From UHGV virus genome UHGV-0041831: DNA of 12,454 bases; one strand, 5' to 3'. This DNA comes from a virus. The position numbers and the translations under genes were made by a program. A model generated the notes under the pieces. It searched no databases, was not told the DNA's origin, and saw only the letters and a program-made list of their open reading frames with translations. Below are positions 2,695-9,868 of the stretch, piece by piece; position 1 is the stretch's first letter; every line of letters starts with the position of its first letter.

Positions 2695-3162
2695 TTATTT
2701 CAGGCACTGAGTACGGATATATTCCTGCGCCCCTTCCAGTTGCTTCTGCATCGTCATCAGCCGCTCTCTGAGGGTGAAATAATCCCGTGTAACGGTGTCT
2801 GCCAGTTGGGGGCCGGTTGCATTATCCACGCGGGCGGTGCCGGTGGCTTCACGCACGGGACCTGGACAGGTGGCGTTGATACGCAGGCGCTTACGACCAG
2901 CGGCAACGTCAGCGCGAAGAGTTTCATTTTCAGCTTTCGCATCAGCTAACTCCTTCGTGTATTTTGCATCGAGCGCAGCAACATCACGCTGACGCATCTG
3001 CATGTCAGTAATTGCCGCGTTCGCCAGCTTCAGTTCTCTGACATTTTTGTCGCGCTGGGCTTTGTAGGTAATGGCGTTATCACGGTAATGATTCAGCCCC
3101 AGACTAAGCGCACCACAGGCCACCAGCAGGGCAATGATGACCACGCACAGTACGCGGTTCAT
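2695..3162 (-). CDS. Rz: Rz i-spanin (inner-membrane spanin subunit)
   Basis: 155-aa [82 protein letters not shown]..., closely similar to lambda Rz as recalled (N-terminal TM, coiled-coil body). Confidence 0.9.
2757..2942 (-). CDS. Rz1: Rz1 o-spanin lipoprotein, embedded in the +1 frame inside Rz
   Basis: 61-aa [64 protein letters not shown]. It has a lipobox (LVVSAC) and a proline-rich mature region, like lambda Rz1, and is fully nested in Rz. Confidence 0.85.
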
Positions 3163-3163
3163 T

Positions 3164-3262
3164 TCACCACCAGCGTATCTGACCGATGAAATAACCGGAG
3201 GCCATAATCACAAACACCAGCCAGATAAGAATGAACTTCCAGGTGGATAATTTTTCAGCCAT
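3164..3262 (-). CDS. Hypothetical 32-aa single-TM membrane peptide between endolysin and Rz (not in the ORF track)
   Basis: Manual translation gives [38 protein letters not shown] lies 8 nt upstream of the ATG. Its TGA stop (3164-3166) is 1 nt from the Rz ATG (3160-3162), suggesting translational coupling. An in-frame GTG at 3335-3337 could extend it to 57 aa. Confidence 0.3.
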
Positions 3263-3337
3263 CACTCGAATCTCCCGAATCAGTTTGCTAAAATCAAACA
3301 CACTTTCTCCTTTGACTTTTCCGGAGTCAGGAAACAC

Positions 3338-3371
3338 AAAACCCCGCTTGGTGCCAACAAACGGGGTTTTT
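3338..3371. terminator. Bidirectional hairpin with flanking A/T tracts between endolysin and Rz
   Basis: AAAACCCCGCTTGGTGCCAACAAACGGGGTTTTT: stem ACCCCG/CGGGGT with an inner TTGG/CCAA helix, T-run after it on plus and T-run after it on minus (TTTTGTGTTT). Confidence 0.45.
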
Positions 3372-3460
3372 ACTTTTATTCACTTACGTTTCGCCAGTTC
3401 GCAGGATTTCGTGTTATCCGCCCGCGTGGCCATACCTTATTTTTCAGCAAAATATTCTGC

Positions 3461-3994
3461 TTATCTGTCGATTCCCCAGCACGCCAGCGCGCTCTCCTGG
3501 TCACGACGGGATACCTGACCATAACAGTTATTTGAGCGGACACGGCAGTCTCTGCCACCGTCCTTAATCCACCAGCGAATCGCCTCACACGCTCCCCTGC
3601 GATCACCTGCATTAATTCGTTTATAAAACGTCGACGGGAAACACTTACCGGGACCAATGTTGTACGGACAGAATGACGCGATCCCCGCTTTCTGGGGTTC
3701 ACTCAATGGCACTCTGATGTTTTTCTCCACCCATGCCAGCGCCTTATCACGCTCAATGGCGTTAACCCGGTCGCATTTTTCCTTCGACAACTTCATGCCC
3801 GGAACGACAGGTTTGCCATCCACCAGGATGGCACCGCGGCAGATGGTCCAGATACCCGCGCCATCACGGTATGCCGTGGTGTGGTTACCTTCCTTTTCAT
3901 CCAGAAACTGGTCGAGAATGTCAGGCGCAGGCGCACCAGCGGCAATCAGCGCCAGAACGGCAGCCGACAGGCCGTATCTGATTTTTGCGTTCAT
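3461..3994 (-). CDS. Phage endolysin, T4-lysozyme-like muramidase with N-terminal signal-anchor (SAR-type)
   Basis: 177-aa ORF MNAKIRYGLSAAVLALIAAGAPA... followed by E-x8-D-x5-T (EGNHTTAYRDGAGIWT), the catalytic spacing of T4-type lysozymes. The N-terminal hydrophobic, Ala/Gly-rich segment has no Cys, consistent with a SAR domain. A pinholin partner lies upstream. Confidence 0.88.
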   Translation of the reverse strand: MNAKIRYGLSAAVLALIAAGAPAPDILDQFLDEKEGNHTTAYRDGAGIWTICRGAILVDGKPVVPGMKLSKEKCDRVNAIERDKALAWVEKNIRVPLSEPQKAGIASFCPYNIGPGKCFPSTFYKRINAGDRRGACEAIRWWIKDGGRDCRVRSNNCYGQVSRRDQESALACWGIDR

Positions 3995-4099
3995 GGATAT
4001 TTATCAGGATTTATCGGTTTCTGAGCCCTAGATATGTTTATCAGTTCCAGCCTGTTGCCTCAGGCTGCTAACAGGTCAATACAATCATGAGGATTATTT

Positions 4100-4372
4100 A
4101 TGGACAATAACACCATTTCTCTACAGGAGTTGCTCGACAGCATTTCCAGGCTTCGGGAAGACGTGAATACCCTTACCGTCGCCTTCTCATATCTGGCATT
4201 CTCAATTCCAAGGGAACAGATGCAATCAACGCTGGCATCAATCCAGTTTGAATCATGCAATCCCAAATGGTCTCAGGAACAACAAGACTCTTTCAGGCGG
4301 CTTGCTGTATTACTGGATGAAAAATATGCTGGTAAAATTACCATTTCGGCGGACTCTTCAGAGAACCCGTAA
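4100..4372 (+). CDS. Hypothetical acidic 90-aa protein encoded antisense to the lysis operon
   Basis: ATG at 4100 with a GAGGA Shine-Dalgarno 6 nt upstream (4089-4093) and a candidate -10 TACAAT at 4080-4085. Sequence MDNNTISLQELLDSISRLREDVNTLTVAFSYLAFSIPREQ... has no family I recognise. Its 3' end overlaps the YdfR-like gene by 35 nt in convergent orientation. Confidence 0.5.
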   Translation: MDNNTISLQELLDSISRLREDVNTLTVAFSYLAFSIPREQMQSTLASIQFESCNPKWSQEQQDSFRRLAVLLDEKYAGKITISADSSENP

Positions 4373-4682
4373 TTATTCCCGGTAGTTTTCCTCTGTAGGT
4401 TATCAACACATCCTGCGCCTCTAAAATTACGGGGCGCTTTTCCGGCGACTGCTCATCCCCTTCACATAACCCGGCAGCAACATCCAGGAAGACCTGTCTG
4501 ATGCTCCTTCTGGCTGCTGACTCATAAAACTCCAGCGCTGCACCTTCAACACGGTCCAGCGAGATGTCCAGGTCAAAAATTTCACCGTCAAAGCGTTTTT
4601 TGTCCCGTAACGCTAAAGTTACCGTAACTTTATTCTCAAAATTGCGGATCCCTTTCACAATCAGTTCATAGTTTTGAGTCAT
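4338..4682 (-). CDS. YdfR-like (DUF1327-like) protein between holin and endolysin
   Basis: 114-aa ORF MTQNYELIVKGIRNFENKVTVTLALRDKKRFDGEIFDLDISLDRVEGAALEFYESAARRSIRQVFLDVA..., resembling E. coli Qin prophage YdfR as recalled, which also sits between holin and lysozyme. GGGGAGAG Shine-Dalgarno; start 4 nt after the holin stop. Confidence 0.65.
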   Translation of the reverse strand: MTQNYELIVKGIRNFENKVTVTLALRDKKRFDGEIFDLDISLDRVEGAALEFYESAARRSIRQVFLDVAAGLCEGDEQSPEKRPVILEAQDVLITYRGKLPGIITGSLKSPPKW

Positions 4683-4686
4683 TGAA

Positions 4687-4902
4687 TTACTCTCCCCGTG
4701 CAGCCTTACGACGGTCCTCTCTGATTTTGAAATACAGGTTAGTCAGATATGTCAGCAGCCCAAACAGCAGACTCCCCAGCACGCCTATTGCCGCCCACTG
4801 AGACGGGGAAACCCTGTCCAGCAACTGCAGGAACCAGTAGCCCGTTCCCACCGCTGACGTGGTGTATGACACACCTGTTGTGATTTTTTCCATCTGGTAC
4901 AT
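4687..4902 (-). CDS. Class II holin, phage 21 S-like pinholin with dual-start motif (71-aa and 68-aa products)
   Basis: From Met27 of the track ORF: [71 protein letters not shown], near-collinear with S21 as recalled. Two TM segments, charged C-terminus, Met1-x-x-Met4 dual start, GGGAGA Shine-Dalgarno 6 nt upstream. The N-terminal extension to 4980 in the ORF track is probably not translated. Confidence 0.85.
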
Positions 4903-5052
4903 ACCCCGTCTCCCGTTATCCGGAAGCTGACAACAATAAAAAAAGCCACCAGTTAAGTACTGATGGCTCTGATAACTCATGCAGGCATCTCAGACGACCC
5001 ACTGACACTACCGGTGAGTTTAACGATACCTTCCATTTGGCTGGCTCACTTT

Positions 5053-6906
5053 TTATGATGATGCCGGTGCATTTATCTCCAGCACCAGACTTTCTATCTC
5101 AACGCCATACGCTGCATTTTTGGTAATATCCGTCAGCGTCAGCGCATTCAGCCCCAGTGTCAGACTGTCTTTTATGACCTGGAATGCCGGGCCAGCCACT
5201 CCATTCAGTTTCGGAGTAACCGTGGCACTGCCGGCGGTGAACACCAGCTCCAGCGTCTGCCAGTCGTTACTGTAATTCCCGAACTCGCCCAACTTTGTGT
5301 TTCCTGCTTTCTTGTGATGCATCAGATTCAGTTTGCCGTCTGTGGTCTGGGTGAAGAACGACATCAGGAACGGGTTACCAGTCCCGGTCATCGCCACGAC
5401 GTCAGGTAACGCTACATCGGTATACAGATAAATTCCCAGACCGAACTGGTTGTTGGTCAGTGCGCCTGACAGTCGAAACTTACAGCTCAGTCTGCCACCC
5501 CGTGTCAGCAGGGAGACTGCGTCATCCACCGGGCGCGTCAGGGACCAGGCTTTATTGCTCTGCTTGGTGATCTTAAATACACCATCTGACAACTGAATTC
5601 CGCCATTCTTAATGCTCCAGCCCTGCGCAGCAGCGTCTCCGGCTGTCGGCAACAGGGAGATTGTGCGTATGGATGCATCTTCAGACGGCCCCGATGGCGT
5701 GTCGCCGCCGGGCGAGGGTTTGATTTCCGGTGCCTTACCACTAATGAAGGCTAAGGTGCGACCGGCTACGTTCAGAATAGCAGTTGCCATACGATCGGGA
5801 ATAATGCCACGACGCGCCCATGAGCTGAAATGCGTCGGGCGATTTGATGATACCCAGTTTTTGTTCGTTCGGGATGCCGAACCGTAATAACCAGACCCGG
5901 CAATATCAGGATCTTCTGACGGGTTGTTTGTCGGTGTATTAACTCCGCTACCATCGGTCATAAAGGGAACAAAATAAATCTGCTGGGATTCTTTACCTTT
6001 ATATGCACCATATACCACTTCATATTGCGTACCGTGTTCTTGTTTCCACGCGTATGTCGTGTCGCCACAAATCCAGGGGACTGATGCCGGACTTCCACCG
6101 TGACACTGCGCCGCCAGCCCGGCAAGGTCAGCACGGAACTGCTGTACCATTGCAAGAAATGCTGCTGGCTGCTGGGCGTAACTGGCATTCGTCATATCGA
6201 ATTCCCCCTGCATCCAGCATATCGCCAGCAAAACGTTTTTCGGGTTTTTCTGCAATGCTGCCTTCGTGCGGAAAAGCAGATCCTGATATAACGGCTTACC
6301 CACTCCCCAGCGAGCCGAATCCTGACTGGCTCCCGTGGACTCGCTGAATGTCCCCTCCGTGCCCTGGGTGAATGCCGAACCACCACGACAGCATGGTACC
6401 AGCAGGATCCCCGCATTATTAGGGATATACGGAAGCAGTTTTTTGGCAATATGTAAGCCCTGTCCGACACAGCCGTACTGCCCTTTGCTCAGGTCAGCCC
6501 GGGGATGGTTAATCGTACTCATATCCTGAACATCATGCAGACAATGGTCAGCAGGAATGATGTCGTTAAATACGCATACTTCACCACCGGGAGTCACTGT
6601 GTTACGACGGGCCAGTTGCTTAATGCGCGGATGGGGCGCATCGTATGAATCCGGAAGCGGAAGCCCTTCACCGTAAGCCATGGCATTGGATTGCCCGGCC
6701 AGTACGATGACGTAGTACCACTCCGGCTCAGTTGCACCACTGACGACCACATCACCTTCTGCTGCAATCGCCTGCATCAGGGTATAAGGGGTTATGGCCA
6801 CCGGACTACCAAACGGCTGCCAGCCCTCCTTCAGTTTTTGTGTCAGTCGTTTCGCAAGGTCTGACGGCGATGCCGCCCTGACCACGTCATAGTGTTTAAA
6901 TGCCAT
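5053..6906 (-). CDS. Prophage NanS-p-like sialate O-acetylesterase (SGNH/DUF303 esterase plus C-terminal domain)
   Basis: 617-aa ORF with a strong GGGAGG Shine-Dalgarno. N-terminal block VIVLAGQSNAMAYGEG carries the GQSN esterase motif. Size, domain layout and position upstream of the holin match the NanS-p/YjhS-like genes that follow stx in Stx phages, as recalled. Confidence 0.85.
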   Translation of the reverse strand: MAFKHYDVVRAASPSDLAKRLTQKLKEGWQPFGSPVAITPYTLMQAIAAEGDVVVSGATEPEWYYVIVLAGQSNAMAYGEGLPLPDSYDAPHPRIKQLARRNTVTPGGEVCVFNDIIPADHCLHDVQDMSTINHPRADLSKGQYGCVGQGLHIAKKLLPYIPNNAGILLVPCCRGGSAFTQGTEGTFSESTGASQDSARWGVGKPLYQDLLFRTKAALQKNPKNVLLAICWMQGEFDMTNASYAQQPAAFLAMVQQFRADLAGLAAQCHGGSPASVPWICGDTTYAWKQEHGTQYEVVYGAYKGKESQQIYFVPFMTDGSGVNTPTNNPSEDPDIAGSGYYGSASRTNKNWVSSNRPTHFSSWARRGIIPDRMATAILNVAGRTLAFISGKAPEIKPSPGGDTPSGPSEDASIRTISLLPTAGDAAAQGWSIKNGGIQLSDGVFKITKQSNKAWSLTRPVDDAVSLLTRGGRLSCKFRLSGALTNNQFGLGIYLYTDVALPDVVAMTGTGNPFLMSFFTQTTDGKLNLMHHKKAGNTKLGEFGNYSNDWQTLELVFTAGSATVTPKLNGVAGPAFQVIKDSLTLGLNALTLTDITKNAAYGVEIESLVLEINAPASS

Positions 6907-7059
6907 GAATCCTCCCGGGCGGGATAATGTTGTGAGTCAGATAAGGAGCAGGCTGAAGTCCGGAAGTTACAGGACAATGGCAGAAGGGAGACTACAGCCC
7001 GCAATTCGAAAAAGACCGCGCAGTTGCGCAGAGTGATTACTATGGGGTATTATTCGCCA

Positions 7060-7128
7060 GCTGAAATATTACTTCACGTTTTATTGTTTATTCCTTGCCG
7101 CCCGCGTCTCCCAGCGCGGGCTTTTTTT
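7060..7128 (+). ncRNA. Candidate plus-strand short transcript (about 70 nt) upstream of NanS-p
   Basis: Sigma70-like promoter (-35 TTGCGC 7024-7029, 18-bp spacer, -10 TATTAT 7048-7053) followed by a strong plus-orientation intrinsic terminator (stem GCCCGCG/CGCGGGC at 7100-7121, T7 at 7122-7128). No plus-strand CDS explains this terminator. Confidence 0.25.
7100..7128 (+). terminator. Rho-independent terminator, plus orientation
   Basis: GCCCGCG-TCTCCCAG-CGCGGGC followed by TTTTTTT. Confidence 0.6.
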
Positions 7129-7149
7129 GTCCATAAGAAAGCCCCTCCG

Positions 7150-7206
7150 NNNNNNNNNNNNNNNNNNNNNNNNNNNNNNNNNNNNNNNNNNNNNNNNNNN
7201 NNNNNN
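7150..7206. other. Assembly gap (57 N) flanked by identical 28-mers
   Basis: 7122-7149 and 7207-7234 are both TTTTTTTGTCCATAAGAAAGCCCCTCCG. This looks like an unmerged contig-end overlap rather than real sequence. Confidence 0.8.
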
Positions 7207-7217
7207 TTTTTTTGTCC

Positions 7218-7393
7218 ATAAGAAAGCCCCTCCGGAGAGGGGCTAAAGCCGCGTATCTGTATCATCATGCACATGGTGCCGGGTGCCTCCCGGTGAGTTC
7301 AGCCCGGTGCCACTAAACCCGCGTCATTCTCGTTTTGATAATCAGAGATTATACCGTCACCAGTCGCCCCTCCGCTCAGGGGGATTCACCATG
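7218..7393 (-). ncRNA. Tandem unit A: candidate structured small RNA
   Basis: Minus-strand order: promoter-like TTGACA (7432-7437) and TTGTTAAAAAAA, then a 5' block CATGGTGAATCCCCCTGAGCGGAGGGGC, a variable core, a 3' block TCACCGGGAGGCACCCGGCACCATG, then the terminator. 5' CATGGTG can pair with 3' CACCATG; internal hairpins CCCCT/AGGGG and CCGGG/CCCGG. No conserved ORF (frames differ between units A and B). Confidence 0.35.
7225..7244 (-). terminator. Intrinsic terminator of tandem unit A (minus orientation)
   Basis: Perfect 8-bp stem AGCCCCTC/GAGGGGCT with a 4-nt loop, followed on the minus strand by TTCTTATGG. Confidence 0.5.
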
Positions 7394-7495
7394 CGAAATT
7401 TTTTTAACAAATGCCCAGTCTGACAGGCAACTGTCAACTTACTGAATTGTGAGCAACATAGCATTTAACGGGGAACCTGTTTTCTGCAGTAAAAA

Positions 7496-7517
7496 GGCCC
7501 ACCGGAGCGGATGGGCC
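7496..7517 (-). terminator. Intrinsic terminator between tandem units (minus orientation)
   Basis: Minus strand AGGCCCA-TCCGCTCCGG-TGGGCCT followed by TTTTTAC. Confidence 0.45.
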
Positions 7518-7703
7518 TGGAAGGATAGCGGTCATGTGATGCCGGTTTCCCGGTAACTCAGCACCGGTATCTGAGTCAACGTTTTCTCTACTGGGTCATT
7601 TCCGATACGCCCTGCCTGCTGACAGGCTTTCATCACATCTGAAAATATAGCACCCTGACTGATACTGTAGTACCTAAGGTTCCAGAAACTGTGATGTATC
7701 CGG

Positions 7704-7861
7704 CACAGAAAAGCCCCTCCGGAGAGGGGCTGGAGAGTGGCGCTATGTGCCATTGCATGGTGCCGGGTGCCTCCCGGTGAATTCAGTACCAGCACCTGAA
7801 TCCGCGATTATCCCATATACCTACTCGCTGATTGCCCCTCCGCACAGGGGGATTCACCATG
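7704..7861 (-). ncRNA. Tandem unit B: candidate structured small RNA (diverged paralogue of unit A)
   Basis: Same architecture as unit A: TTGACT (7900-7905) and TTGTTAAAAG, then 5' block CATGGTGAATCCCCCTGTGCGGAGGGGC (7834-7861), variable core, 3' block TCACCGGGAGGCACCCGGCACCATG (7756-7780), then terminator. The conserved blocks are near-identical to unit A while the core differs. Confidence 0.35.
7712..7731 (-). terminator. Intrinsic terminator of tandem unit B (minus orientation)
   Basis: Same 8-bp stem AGCCCCTC/GAGGGGCT as unit A, followed on the minus strand by TTTTCTGTG. Confidence 0.55.
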
Positions 7862-7934
7862 CCAGTTTCTTTTAACAAACTCCCCGCAAACCAGACAACA
7901 GTCAACCGCCTGAATTGTGAGACATTTAAAAAAA

Positions 7935-7950
7935 GCCCGCAAAAGCGAGC
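7935..7950 (-). terminator. Intrinsic terminator immediately after the tRNA cluster (minus orientation)
   Basis: Minus strand GCTCGC-TTTT-GCGGGC (6-bp stem including one G-U pair) followed by TTTTTTT. Confidence 0.55.
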
Positions 7951-7965
7951 CAGGGAAAATAAGTG

Positions 7966-8042
7966 TGGCGCGTTGTACTGGATTCGAACCAGTGACCGAT
8001 TGCTTAGAAGGCAATTGCTCTGTCCGGCTGAGCTAACAACGC
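7966..8042 (-). tRNA. argO: tRNA-Arg (anticodon UCU), phage-encoded
   Basis: Manual cloverleaf: acceptor GCGTTGT/ACAACGC, D-arm GCTC...GAGC, anticodon stem ATTGC/GCAAT with loop CTTCTAA (anticodon TCT), T-arm ACTGG-TTCGAAT-CCAGT, discriminator G, encoded CCA. Symbol given by analogy with the Stx-phage tRNA cluster. Confidence 0.8.
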
Positions 8043-8055
8043 AGGATACAGATAA

Positions 8056-8132
8056 TGGACCGCCTTCGGGGACCCGAACTCCGCGCAACCAGCTTCGAAA
8101 GCTGGCGCTCTTTCCTGATGAGCTAATGGCGG
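8056..8132 (-). tRNA. argN: tRNA-Arg-like (anticodon UCG) with non-canonical features; possibly degenerate
   Basis: Manual fold: D-arm GCTC-ATCAGGAAA-GAGC, perfect anticodon stem CCAGC/GCTGG with loop TTTCGAA (anticodon TCG), encoded CCA. But the acceptor stem starts with C and has one mismatch, the T-stem has an A-C mismatch, and the T-loop is TTCGGGT (G at the usual A58 position). Confidence 0.55.
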
Positions 8133-8139
8133 TATGTGA

Positions 8140-8215
8140 TGGTGGCCCTTGCTGGATTTGAACCAGCGACCTGGCGATTATGAGTCGCTCGCTCTCACCA
8201 CTGAGCTAAAGGGCC
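8140..8215 (-). tRNA. ileZ: tRNA with CAU anticodon (Ile2/lysidine type or Met)
   Basis: Manual cloverleaf: acceptor GGCCCTT/AAGGGCC, D-arm GCTC-AGTGGTGA-GAGC, anticodon loop CTCATAA (CAT), T-arm GCTGG-TTCAAAT-CCAGC, discriminator A, encoded CCA. Symbol by analogy with the Stx-phage ileZ-argN-argO cluster. Confidence 0.75.
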
Positions 8216-8264
8216 GGGAGCAGAATAATAATGGTGCGTAATTAATTCTGCAATCTCATCCGTT

Positions 8265-9314
8265 TCAAACGATTAAATCCTGAACTTCCCTGACTGTCTG
8301 CTCAAAACGTCCGGTCTCCAGTTCAACGCCAATCGCACGACGCCCGAGCGCCAGTGCCACTTTTACCGTTGAACCTGAGCCCATAAAAAAATCTGCAACC
8401 AGGTCACCCGGACGACTGCTTGCGCTGATTATCTGCTGCAGCATTTCTGCCGGTTTTTCGCACGGATGTTTCCCTGGATAGAACTGCACCGGTTTATGTG
8501 TCCACACATCCGTGTACGGCACCTGCGCCGTCACACCAAAATACCGCCGCAGATGCTTATATTCACTCTGCAGCTCCACATACTGCCGGTTCAGTGACGT
8601 ATACGTATCCACCAGCTGGTGGTGGGGCTTTTCCAGTTCACCGCGCTGATGTTTCTCTTCTGCCACCCGGGCAAACAGCGACTGTAATTTCAGATAATCG
8701 CTTTCGTTCGGTAGCTGCCACTGACTGGCACTGAACCAGTGCGACACCATGTTTTTCTTTCCTGTGGCATCTGCAATCTGTTTTGCCGTTATCCCCAAGG
8801 CAGCGCGCGCATCACGAAAGTAAGAAATCAGCGGGGCCATCACATGCTGTTTCAGTGCACTGCCCTTCGCCGCATACCCGGCATCTTTCGGACGATACGG
8901 CCCCTGATAATGTTCCGCGAACAGAATGCGCTCTGTGGCGGGGAAATACGCCCGCAGGCTTTCCTTGTTGCATCCGTTCCAGCGTCCGGACGGCTTCGCC
9001 CAGATAATATGGTTCAGCACACTGAAGCGTTCACGCATCATGATTTCGATATCAGATGCCAGGCGATGACCACAGAACAGGTAAAGACTTCCGACAGGTT
9101 TCAGCACCCGCCAGAACTGCGCCAGACACTGGTCCAGCCACTTCAGGTAATCATCGTCGCCCTTCCACTGGTTATCCCAGCCCTCAGGCTTCACTTTAAA
9201 GTACGGCGGGTCCGTGACTATCAGGTCAACAGAATTTTCGGGTAACGACCGGATAAATTCCAGGCAGTCGGCGTTGATTAACTCACAACTGGATATTTTT
9301 ACAGTATTAAGCAT
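8265..9314 (-). CDS. DNA amino-methyltransferase, beta-class (N6-adenine or N4-cytosine), apparently orphan
   Basis: 349-aa ORF. Catalytic motif IV DPPY (IVTDPPYF) is near the N-terminus and AdoMet motif I F-x-G-x-G (FFMGSGST) near the C-terminus, the beta-class order. No restriction endonuclease candidate is adjacent. Confidence 0.85.
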   Translation of the reverse strand: MLNTVKISSCELINADCLEFIRSLPENSVDLIVTDPPYFKVKPEGWDNQWKGDDDYLKWLDQCLAQFWRVLKPVGSLYLFCGHRLASDIEIMMRERFSVLNHIIWAKPSGRWNGCNKESLRAYFPATERILFAEHYQGPYRPKDAGYAAKGSALKQHVMAPLISYFRDARAALGITAKQIADATGKKNMVSHWFSASQWQLPNESDYLKLQSLFARVAEEKHQRGELEKPHHQLVDTYTSLNRQYVELQSEYKHLRRYFGVTAQVPYTDVWTHKPVQFYPGKHPCEKPAEMLQQIISASSRPGDLVADFFMGSGSTVKVALALGRRAIGVELETGRFEQTVREVQDLIV

Positions 9315-9346
9315 GGATCATTAAGCCTGTCTCTGATAGGCTCATT

Positions 9347-9365
9347 CTGCTTTTGCGCAAAGCAG
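9347..9365. promoter_or_regulatory. Palindrome CTGCTTT-TGCGC-AAAGCAG about 33 nt upstream of the methyltransferase start
   Basis: Perfect 7-bp inverted repeat with a 5-nt spacer and no flanking U-tract. Candidate operator or 5'-UTR hairpin. Confidence 0.3.
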
Positions 9366-9460
9366 TGGGCCTGAGGTTTGCTTGTGAACCCAACGCATGA
9401 GCAGATGGCTGGTAAGTGCCCCTAACACCCACCAGCCGCCCATTTACCACAAATAAAAAA

Positions 9461-9478
9461 GCCTTCACTGCGGAAGGC
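9461..9478 (-). terminator. Intrinsic terminator overlapping the stop codon of the small wHTH gene (minus orientation)
   Basis: Stem GCCTTC/GAAGGC with 6-nt loop, followed on the minus strand by TTTTTTATTT (plus 9451-9460). The TGA stop at 9465-9467 lies inside the hairpin. Confidence 0.55.
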
Positions 9479-9662
9479 GTCTGTAACAACCGAACTGATA
9501 GTCTGCCAGACCCGCCATAACCAGCTGAGTCAGTATTAACTGGCAGCGTTCGCGTGAAAGGTAAGTATTCTGCGCTATCTCCCCGACTGTCGCCGGTTCG
9601 GTAACGCTTAATTCATTAAACACCACTCTGGCGGTTTCTGTCATATCCTGCTGTTTTAGCAT
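9465..9662 (-). CDS. Small winged-helix-like DNA-binding protein (65 aa), hypothetical
   Basis: Within track ORF 9465..9749, the internal ATG at 9660-9662 has an AGGA Shine-Dalgarno 7 nt upstream. Product MLKQQDMTETARVVFNELSVTEPATVGEIAQNTYLSRERCQLILTQLVMAGLADYQFGCYRRLPQ has a DeoR/MarR-like recognition-helix pattern. The longer track start lacks a ribosome-binding site. Confidence 0.45.
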   Translation of the reverse strand: MLKQQDMTETARVVFNELSVTEPATVGEIAQNTYLSRERCQLILTQLVMAGLADYQFGCYRRLPQ

Positions 9663-9806
9663 GTCTTTTTCCTTTTTCCGGTTAACGTGACATACCAATA
9701 ACTCTTGTCGAAAAAGCCAGCAAGCTGAAAGACCCGTATTCGCAACCACCAGCGTGTTTACTGTACTGACGCGATTTTGGGCATAAAAAAAAAACCGCCC
9801 GACGGC

Positions 9807-9868
9807 NNNNNNNNNNNNNNNNNNNNNNNNNNNNNNNNNNNNNNNNNNNNNNNNNNNNNNNNNNNNNN
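9807..9868. other. Assembly gap (62 N) flanked by near-identical poly-A/CCGCC-GACGGC sequence
   Basis: Left flank ...GCATAAAAAAAAAACCGCCCGACGGC and right flank ...GGGGAAAAAAAAAAAAACCGCCTGACGGC are near-duplicates. Probably an unmerged contig overlap in a homopolymer-rich region. Confidence 0.75.

Follow-up and report, generated by a model that had tools for sequence, protein, structure and literature searches.

The stretch of DNA analysed here (the window) comprises 12,454 nucleotides of the virus genome UHGV-0041831. Its late genes all lie on the minus strand, in the order Q, DNA methyltransferase, tRNA-Ile2(CAU) and two tRNA-Arg, an intergenic interval of ~1 kb (6907–7965), NanS-p esterase, holin, lysozyme and Rz, with Nu1 listed last after Rz (Table 1). 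The initial annotation, made from the sequence alone, had described this order as Stx-phage-like from Q to Rz. Pfam domains, tRNA calls and comparison with 933W and Stx2a phages bear this out: Q, ileZ/argN/argO, a moron slot, nanS-p, S, R and Rz follow one another as in the late regions of Stx phages.

Late-region genes and terminators

The counterpart of Q carries the annotation Q in CE10 and APEC O18. The predicted esterase combines DUF1737 and SASA with a C-terminal DUF6645 and is encoded upstream of the holin, an arrangement that points to a NanS-p prophage esterase; its counterpart in closed genomes is annotated as a SASA family carbohydrate esterase. The naming of the CAU tRNA differs between sources (Met in ARAGORN, tRNA-Ile in PGAP, ileZ in the 933W record).

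Table 1 Features of the window, in late-strand order
Feature	Position	Strand	Match or source
DUF968/HNH gene	12083–11028	−	
RusA gene	11027–10662	−	
Late antiterminator Q, 229 aa	9976–10665	−	Pfam PF06323 Phage_antiter_Q, E = 1.4e-83
Second N run; zero-content scaffold join in tR′-like A-run/hairpin downstream of Q	9807–9868	.	
N6/N4 DNA methyltransferase	8265–9314	−	Pfam PF01555, E = 2.6e-44
tRNA with CAU anticodon, ileZ-type tRNA-Ile2	8140–8215	−	ARAGORN; Rfam tRNA, 72.5 bits
tRNA-Arg (UCG), argN-type	8056–8132	−	ARAGORN, Rfam, 933W record
tRNA-Arg (UCU), argO-type	7966–8042	−	ARAGORN, Rfam, 933W record
Minus-strand hairpins	7951–7934, 7731–7712, 7518–7495, 7244–7225, 7031–7016	−	Terminator scan
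Intrinsic terminator after the tRNAs	7934–7951	−	Homologous to 933W "terminator upstream of the stx genes"
Empty stx moron site	7924–7925	−	~1.33-kb stxAB cassette here in 933W and Stx2_EH2201
STnc100 sRNA gene, copy B (terminator 7731–7712; putative start ~7862)	7701–7891	−	Rfam RF02076
Degenerate third unit C (own terminator 7518–7495)	7477–7693	−	Aligned with units A and B
33-aa ATG ORF in unit C (55 aa in some phage records)	7633–7532	−	phrog_23557
STnc100 sRNA gene, copy A (terminator 7244–7225; putative start ~7394)	7214–7423	−	Rfam RF02076
Assembly artefact: 57 Ns (7150–7206) and second copy of the preceding 28 nt	7150–7234	.	
Antisense sRNA converging on copy A, 182 nt (seed CCUUGCC 7093–7099; terminator 7100–7128)	6947–7128	+	
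Last minus-strand terminator before nanS-p	7016–7031	−	Conserved in 933W and phi296
NanS-p-type sialate O-acetylesterase, 617 aa	5053–6906	−	Pfam DUF1737, SASA and DUF6645
Lysis cassette overall	2695–4902	−	Pfam; PGAP coordinates in CE10 and APEC O18
Class II holin, P21-type	4902–4687	−	Pfam PF04971
YdfR/DUF1327	4682–4338	−	Pfam PF07041
Lysozyme R	3994–3461	−	Pfam PF00959
Rz	3162–2695	−	Pfam PF03245

A terminator scan returned 10 terminator-like matches, against 1.7 ± 1.3 in shuffled sequences, which collapse to five minus-strand hairpins, one weak hairpin and one plus-strand hairpin (7100–7121). The region of the post-tRNA terminator is 88.7% identical to 933W (L003 4353–4413), whose record annotates a terminator at 4386–4409.

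Small RNA genes in the interval

The initial annotation saw in the interval only tandem non-coding units, five terminators and an N gap. The repeats are real and the five minus-strand terminators are present; the units themselves are known sRNA genes, which had been overlooked along with their pairing with a convergent antisense sRNA, and the N gap is an artefact. Two of the units match the STnc100 family over the full model (1–206) and above its gathering score of 47 bits: copy A with 165.4 bits (E = 4.8e-38) and copy B with 136.3 bits (E = 1.4e-30). The degenerate unit C between them stays below this threshold (30.1 bits, E = 2.4e-4). Direct repeats of the tandem units are spaced 468–487 nt apart, and the conserved parts of copies A and B share ~80% identity, whereas their central regions differ.

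A single STnc100 unit lies directly 3′ of stxB in 933W (75 nt after stxB) and EH2201, and the stx-negative 933W-like phage phi296 also has one. Copy A is 76% (933W) to 86% (EH2201) identical to the unit after stxB and corresponds, by sequence, to EcOnc27, downstream of stx2B in Stx2 phages; copy B, the unit adjoining the tRNAs, is ~70% identical to the post-stxB unit of Stx phages. STnc100/EcOnc27 (sRNA103 in O157), downstream of stx2B, binds Hfq (PMC12711010; PMC12370729), and an STnc100 homologue has been detected in OMVs (PMC12370729). PasD, which is sited upstream of an esterase gene, is related to STnc100 (bioRxiv 10.64898/2026.05.13.724894). The 5′ end of PasD2 aligns to position 7862, and the putative starts of the STnc100 copies were placed by homology to this mapped end. 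A scan for consensus sigma-70 promoters found none before either copy, and the final T is missing from the −10-like box that has been proposed, TGnTAAAAA. The units are not PasD itself: blastn aligns only the first 26–42 nt (79–83% identity) of that 172-nt RNA. The relation between PasD and STnc100 appears to hold at the family level, as Zhu et al. argue. A blastn search for PasA/PasC between the esterase and holin genes found neither.

The plus-strand sRNA is 92.9% identical over 182/182 nt (E = 1e-75) to the EPEC E2348/69 candidate E2348C_1409.E2348C_1408.IGR, an Hfq-associated RIL-seq candidate with EcOnc08/21/42 homologues and the target motif GGCAAGG/GGCAGGG (PMC8550237, supplement). Both the seed CCUUGCC and the terminator fall within this full-length homology, which marks the RNA as EcOnc08/21/42-type. 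In the MFE and centroid folds alike, the seed is left unpaired immediately 5′ of the terminator hairpin; the RNA as a whole folds no better than shuffled sequences (z = −0.93). It occupies the position held by AsxR in Stx2 phages, yet it is not AsxR: RF02703 has no match at E ≤ 1 in the closed equivalent of the window, the aligned sequences differ at this position, and AsxR of 933W scores 88.1 bits. AgvB can be dismissed at this position as well, with no Rfam match.

Three ORFs of the interval match PHROGs of unknown function, and for one alone, the 33–55 aa ORF of unit C, the match is full-length (phrog_23557; E = 7e-30, profile positions 3–55 of 55). Given this match, a description of the interval as holding RNA genes only may be incomplete. 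The ORF could be a real gene for a small protein, expressed from the late transcript, which would be compatible with the sRNA reading: it is open in both alleles (85.7% identical), a terminator follows it, and phage vB_EcoS-640R1 has it annotated as a CDS. We nevertheless regard this as unlikely. The ORF has no Pfam match, PGAP shows no CDS there among the 29 full-length matches listed of 672 records, and inspection of the sequence found no Shine–Dalgarno upstream of the ATG or GTG. Most differences between the alleles are non-synonymous and show no third-position bias, a compensated frameshift lies shortly upstream, and a coding test on the two alleles gave no signal of purifying selection. 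Moreover, over-called ORFs occur among PHROG families, and unit C itself shows weak homology to an sRNA gene.

The two and a half STnc100-family units may have arisen by duplication within the locus and now be diverging, the middle one decaying or becoming a small ORF; we put this forward tentatively, as a possible but doubtful history. If true, the empty stx slot of an ExPEC-associated prophage would have become a small sRNA array, with a convergent EcOnc08-type RNA and distinct target sets, and would be a counter-example to multi-copy prophage sRNAs arising solely by repeated phage acquisition.

Absence of toxin genes and origin of the empty site

Searching the window and its closed equivalent loci with Stx2A and Stx2B (tblastn) gave chance matches alone (E at least 0.46), none of them in 6907–7965, with the Stx2a phage Stx2_EH2201 as a working positive control (E = 0 and 5e-59). 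The absence of an stx gene from the slot is thus confirmed, and the window contains neither an stxA nor an stxB coding sequence. The accompanying statement that the interval has no ORF with a start is too strong: mechanical ORFs are present, the longest of 87 aa with a GTG start, but none of the interval ORFs matches Pfam. Between them, the tblastn and Pfam results rule out Stx and other toxins both in the interval and in the rest of the window.

At position 7924, homology to the sequence upstream of stxA in 933W and Stx2_EH2201 stops and homology to the sequence downstream of stxB begins. In 933W and another Stx2a phage, stxAB lies flush between the post-tRNA terminator and the single STnc100 unit; the window joins terminator and STnc100 unit directly at ~7924 and therefore carries an exact empty site. 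The comparison with Stx-phage late regions that the initial annotation had proposed thus yields, for 933W and Stx2_EH2201, a matching layout around this site.

The same annotation had allowed for a toxin cassette inside the N run at 7150–7206. The 28 nt on its left side (7122–7149) recur exactly on its right (7207–7234), and both flanks match CE10 and APEC O18 exactly, the left one running to locus position 6450 and the right one beginning at 6423, an overlap of 28 nt. At least 19 complete genomes are 100% identical across window positions 6700–8300, with a span of 1516 nt in the record and 1601 nt in the query; the difference of 85 nt is the 57 Ns plus the 28-nt duplicate. None of the closed matches at 100% identity has any insert at the run. 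Since the flanks overlap by 28 nt in closed genomes, the true interval measures 974 nt, not 1059. The duplicated flank and the closed genomes identical on both sides indicate that two contig ends overlapping by 28 nt were joined at the run during scaffolding, with no sequence missing and no toxin hidden in unsequenced DNA. That it conceals real DNA (a toxin cassette, an IS element or a further repeat unit) has next to no probability, the flank overlap ruling out missing sequence. One may object that closed genomes here stand in for the source isolate's own reads, that the interval takes IS insertions elsewhere (ISEc13 in EPEC PP6) and that in so repetitive a region an extra tandem unit could collapse on assembly. 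Against this, the break lies inside the loop of the copy A terminator hairpin, a hairpin loop being a typical assembly break point, and the second N run bears the same signature: its flanks are error-bearing copies of one ~35-nt stretch that is single-copy in closed genomes, and their blastn alignment coordinates overlap by ~20 nt.

With nothing concealed in the run, the empty site itself could still reflect descent from a Stx-converting phage by a recent, precise deletion of stxAB that left the flanks intact. The junction coincides exactly with the two ends of the stx cassette in 933W and EH2201, a short ATCTG seen by inspection at both 933W cassette borders could mediate such a deletion, stx-negative 933W-like phages exist (phi296, TL-2011a), and Zhu et al. 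(bioRxiv 10.64898/2026.05.13.724894) offer repeated stx loss as a possible cause of stx-less sRNA–esterase loci. An empty site is, however, equally expected if stx never inserted, and tblastn found no stx remnant. The flanks are 6–30% diverged from every Stx phage found: the methylase-to-tRNA block (7966–9791) is 94% identical to its counterpart in several Stx2a phages, and among the Stx phages of the phage collection identity reaches at most ~94% on the methylase/tRNA side and ~86–91% on the nanS side. The Stx phages with the shared methylase offer no match for the Q gene, and the Stx phages compared lack equivalents of units B and C. Because copy B is only ~70% identical to the post-stxB unit, the window sequence would not result from merely excising stxAB from a known Stx phage. 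Near-identical toxin-free intervals also occur in hundreds of genomes, the 974-nt interval being found at ≥99% identity in 243 complete E. coli genome records. Recent toxin loss is thus very improbable. Of the two origins the initial annotation had offered, a stx-negative relative or a lost-toxin derivative, the flank divergence, the 243 records and the divergence of copy B favour the stx-negative relative.

Taken as such a relative, the window very probably represents the late operon of a stx-negative lambdoid prophage whose moron slot, downstream of Q/pR′ and the tRNAs, holds regulatory-RNA genes alone. We propose that the slot contains two paralogous late-strand STnc100-family genes, each with its own intrinsic terminator, the degenerate third unit between them, and the convergent plus-strand EcOnc08/21/42-type sRNA, which would be antisense to the nanS-p leader. 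In the lysogen, each sRNA would probably be transcribed from a promoter of its own and stop at its own terminator; by analogy with published homologues, the sRNAs may depend on Hfq and act in trans through it on host and accessory mRNAs. The five stacked late-strand terminators would prevent expression of nanS-p and the lysis genes. Once the prophage is induced, Q-modified RNA polymerase from pR′ would pass all terminators and allow expression of nanS-p, S, R and Rz, as suggested by the established biology of lambda, 82 and 933W.

These results leave the current understanding of Stx phages unchanged; their value lies in annotation practice. Synteny with a Stx-phage late region is no evidence of toxigenicity, and the caution that this locus should not be scored as toxigenic by synteny alone was justified, with Stx-phage-like synteny found here without stx. 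Nor does an N run in a toxin slot give ground for suspecting a hidden toxin where its flanks overlap. The interval should be annotated as sRNA genes, namely two STnc100 copies and an EcOnc08/21/42-like antisense RNA, whose relatives in EHEC and EPEC are Hfq binders with virulence and core-genome transcripts among their interaction partners.

Comparison with related prophages and known sRNA loci

Prophages of this type are widespread in E. coli and are present in extraintestinal pathogenic strains such as CE10 (O7:K1) and APEC O18: of 5426 complete E. coli genomes, 353 have the closed 974-nt interval, ExPEC strains among them. The CE10 and APEC O18 prophages are 99.5–100% identical to the window along 12 kb and exact across the interval. 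PP6 of EPEC E2348/69 shares the direct terminator-to-STnc100 junction and the antisense sRNA at ~90% identity but, unlike the window, has ISEc13 inserted in its first STnc100 unit. phi296 resembles the window in having the tRNAs and NanS without stx, with STnc100 present as one unit; phi296 and TL-2011a differ from it in this single unit and an interval of ~530 nt.

With 933W/Sp5 the window shares the gene order, the three tRNAs (92.9% identity over the tRNAs and post-tRNA terminator), an STnc100 unit homologous to copy A, the position of a convergent antisense sRNA, the same terminator ahead of nanS-p and, beyond it, an esterase and lysis genes of the same type. It differs from them in lacking stxAB (a ~1.33-kb cassette, flush at ~7924), in having two and a half STnc100 units rather than one, and in an antisense partner that is EcOnc08/21/42-like, without an RF02703 match. 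Its Q is a different family member of different size (229 aa, PF06323), and a methyltransferase gene separates Q from the tRNAs; other Stx2a phages such as EH2201 share this methyltransferase.

The convergent sRNA arrangement at the moron site is already published: in O157, numerous prophages, whether or not they carry stx, have convergent sRNA pairs/anti-sRNAs at their pR′ moron site (Tree et al. 2014, PMC4104026). Like these pairs and the PasD/STnc100 family (Pearl Mizrahi 2021, PMC8550237; Zhu et al. 2026), the RNAs of the window lie between Q/pR′ on the upstream side and the esterase and lysis genes on the downstream side, converge, and each have an intrinsic terminator. They are homologous to the Hfq-bound RNAs EcOnc27/STnc100 and EcOnc08/21/42, and PasD shares the 5′ motif GCAUGGUGAAUCC with the STnc100 units. 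Zhu et al. (bioRxiv 10.64898/2026.05.13.724894) attribute multiple Pas copies per genome to repeated acquisition, not tandem duplication; in the window, by contrast, a single locus carries two and a half tandem units of the STnc100 family.

Gene order, assembly gaps and toxin search

All late genes of the window lie on the minus strand. Gene, domain and tRNA calls bear out the order given in the initial annotation, a Stx-phage-like late layout lacking stx between the tRNAs and nanS-p. Between nanS-p and the holin gene lie 150 nt (4903-5052) that correspond to the PasA/PasC position in EPEC; no Rfam family was detected there, and PasA had no blastn match in the window.

Features of the late region, in late-strand order (window coordinates)
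Feature	Position	Strand	Remarks
DUF968/HNH protein	12083-11028	-	First in late order
RusA	11027-10662	-
Antiterminator Q	10665-9976	-	PF06323, E 1.4e-83
N6/N4 DNA methyltransferase	9314-8265	-
tRNA, CAU anticodon	8215-8140	-	ARAGORN, Met; PGAP and 933W record, tRNA-Ile/ileZ
tRNA-Arg-UCG	8132-8056	-
tRNA-Arg-UCU	8042-7966	-
Interval under study	7965-6907		Between tRNA-Arg-UCU and esterase gene
Terminator after tRNAs	7951-7934
STnc100 (RF02076), copy B	7891-7701	-	Rfam, full-length, 136.3 bits
Unit-terminal intrinsic terminator	7731-7712
ATG ORF, 33 aa	7633-7532	-	In middle unit (7477-7693); 55 aa in phage records; phrog_23557
Unit-terminal intrinsic terminator	7518-7495
STnc100 (RF02076), copy A	7423-7214	-	Rfam, full-length, 165.4 bits
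Unit-terminal intrinsic terminator	7244-7225
sRNA, 182 nt	6947-7128	+	Antisense to nanS-p leader; converges on copy A
Terminator preceding nanS-p	7031-7016
NanS-p-type esterase, 617 aa	6906-5053	-	DUF1737 + SASA + DUF6645 architecture of NanS-p
P21-type holin, YdfR/DUF1327 protein		-	After esterase gene, before lysozyme
Lysozyme	3994-3461	-
Rz	3162-2695	-	Followed by Nu1

The window contains two N runs, 7150-7206 and 9807-9868. The 28 nt preceding the first (7122-7149) are exactly duplicated after the Ns (7207-7234), and the break falls within the loop of a terminator hairpin. A megablast search of 5,426 complete E. coli genomes with window 6700-8300 returned many 100%-identical records, each at 96% query coverage; these span 1,516 nt against 1,601 nt in the query, an 85-nt shortfall for which the 28 duplicated nt and the 57 Ns account exactly. 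In the CE10 and APEC O18 chromosomes, 6907-7149 and 7207-7965 are present as exact strings overlapping by 28 nt, strong but indirect evidence that scaffolding here joined two contig ends which in fact overlap; the real interval is 974 nt long. This overlap argues against a toxin cassette hidden in the run, the outcome that the initial annotation had named as refuting its reading. The second run lies in an A-run/hairpin terminator region between Q and a small ORF upstream of the methylase. One ~35-nt A-run/hairpin, single-copy in closed genomes, stands on either side of it, each time with errors, so this run too is a scaffold join with zero content; to judge by their homopolymer length errors, both contig ends are of low quality.

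The proposed TBLASTN check for StxA/StxB, run with Stx2A and Stx2B of Stx phage 933W against the window and the closed loci, gave chance matches alone (E ≥ 0.46), none inside the interval; the identical search of a Stx2a phage locus, as positive control, gave E = 0 and 5e-59. The absence of stx from the interval was thus borne out. Leaving aside those overlapping tRNA genes, ORFs of the closed interval are short and mechanical (≤ 87 aa). None of the ten largest matches Pfam. Three interval ORFs match PHROGs, all families of function unknown: two partially, as ORFs antisense to RNA units, and the middle-unit ORF over the full length of a 55-aa family (phrog_23557). Antisense to each STnc100 copy in its 5' part are short plus-strand ORFs (7859-7945 and 7391-7423), which have an ATG just 3' of a GGGGGA motif and give partial matches to PHROGs 27294 and 24488. 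Truncation of the frame differs between the copies, so these ORFs have the look of over-calls rather than genes.

Small RNA genes of the interval

The interval had been described as holding only tandem non-coding units, five terminators and an N gap. The terminators and tandem units stand, but the units are known sRNA genes and the gap is an artefact. Both STnc100 copies exceed the Rfam gathering score of 47, and the middle unit between them gives a sub-threshold match (~7662-7489, 30.1 bits). Terminator-like matches number ten, against 1.7 ± 1.3 in shuffles. The 5' end of the mapped EPEC sRNA PasD2, GCAUGGUGAAUCC, aligns to copy B at 7862 and to copy A at 7394, with a conserved TGnTAAAAA box just 5' of it in each. 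We infer sRNA starts at these positions with the box as putative promoter; a consensus promoter scan made no call at these sites.

At least 80% of the middle unit is held by 672 records, and none of the 29 full-length matches listed carries a PGAP CDS under it. Its only two alleles are 85.7% identical, with mostly non-synonymous differences and a compensated frameshift just 5' of the ORF. Their comparison reveals no coding signature in the ORF, and we lean towards a non-coding unit.

Along its full 182 nt, the plus-strand sRNA shows 92.9% identity to the EPEC E2348/69 RIL-seq candidate E2348C_1409.E2348C_1408.IGR, which its authors relate to EcOnc08/21/42 of O157 (PMC8550237); GGCAAGG/GGCAGGG is the motif common to the targets of that candidate (PMC8550237 supplement). 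The complementary seed CCUUGCC is conserved at 7093-7099, unpaired and immediately followed by a strong terminator hairpin (7100-7128); the whole RNA folds no better than shuffles (z = -0.93). This sRNA has no Rfam family and no annotation in the closed genomes. AsxR was rejected as its identity, being absent here, though it fills that antisense position in 933W.

Origin of the empty stx site

In 933W, ileZ-argN-argO are followed by a terminator, stx2A, stx2B, STnc100 (75 nt after stxB), antisense AsxR and the esterase gene. The window matches this layout: homology to the stxA-upstream sequence ends at 7924, exactly where homology to the stxB-downstream sequence begins, and Stx2a phage Stx2_EH2201 gives the same breakpoint. 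Here, as in EPEC prophage PP6, the T-tract of the post-tRNA terminator runs straight into TCTCACAATTCAG, with which the STnc100 unit starts. Because the homologies meet at one position and the junction is direct, the window is an exact empty site for a ~1.33-kb cassette.

That geometry alone would fit a cassette never inserted as well as one precisely deleted and does not distinguish them, and a stx-negative relative and a lost-toxin derivative had both been proposed. The former is favoured because the best Stx phages reach only 94% identity across the methylase/tRNA block, lack a match in their Q genes and fall to 76-91% on the nanS side; copy B, adjoining the tRNAs, is ~70% identical to the post-stxB unit; and the middle unit occurs in only five phage records, none named Stx-converting. 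Prevalence points the same way: the toxin-free 974-nt interval is found in 353 of the 5,426 complete genomes at ≥ 80% coverage, and 243 records, including a neonatal-meningitis and an avian pathogenic strain, are ≥ 99% identical. The stx-negative 933W-like phages phi296 and TL-2011a carry a single unit.

A short ATCTG stands at both stx2 cassette borders in 933W (L003 4405-4420, 5738-5750) and Stx2_EH2201; chance could explain it, or it could be left over from gain or loss of the cassette. In the homologous stx-less slot of PP6 (L007 1612-2985), an ISEc13 transposase is inserted in the first STnc100 unit, showing that the slot tolerates insertions. Some relatives carry alternative cargo, absent from the window: a gene for an iraM-like anti-adaptor, encoded by the opposite strand, between STnc100-family units and the esterase gene (Stx2_EH2201, L004 4050-4373; vB_EcoS-640R1, L008 4008-4343).

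Expression and relation to published loci

In lambda, 82/21 and 933W, Q modifies RNA polymerase at pR', leading to read-through of downstream terminators; moron-slot genes are expressed either together with the late operon or by promoters of their own. In a lysogen, the five late-strand terminators would insulate nanS-p and the lysis genes, and the sRNA genes would be individually terminated.

Homologues of these sRNAs bind Hfq, and both core and virulence transcripts are among their interaction partners (PMC4104026, PMC8550237, PMC12711010). Overall, the initial observation was confirmed and its interpretation supported, in the narrower form of a stx-negative relative; the finding as a whole is already known, because Tree et al. 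(2014) and Zhu et al. (2026) described such an arrangement, of which this locus is a very common instance. Tree et al. reported that the pR' moron site can carry pairs of convergent sRNAs, as in Sp5, where stx2 is followed by EcOnc27 and AsxR, with like organisation in seven other O157 prophages (PMC4104026). Zhu et al. placed PasD/STnc100 upstream of the esterase gene, discussed stx-less loci and explained the multiple copies of Pas sRNAs by repeated acquisition rather than duplication in tandem (bioRxiv 10.64898/2026.05.13.724894); the tandem duplication of STnc100-family units in the window is one small departure from that account.
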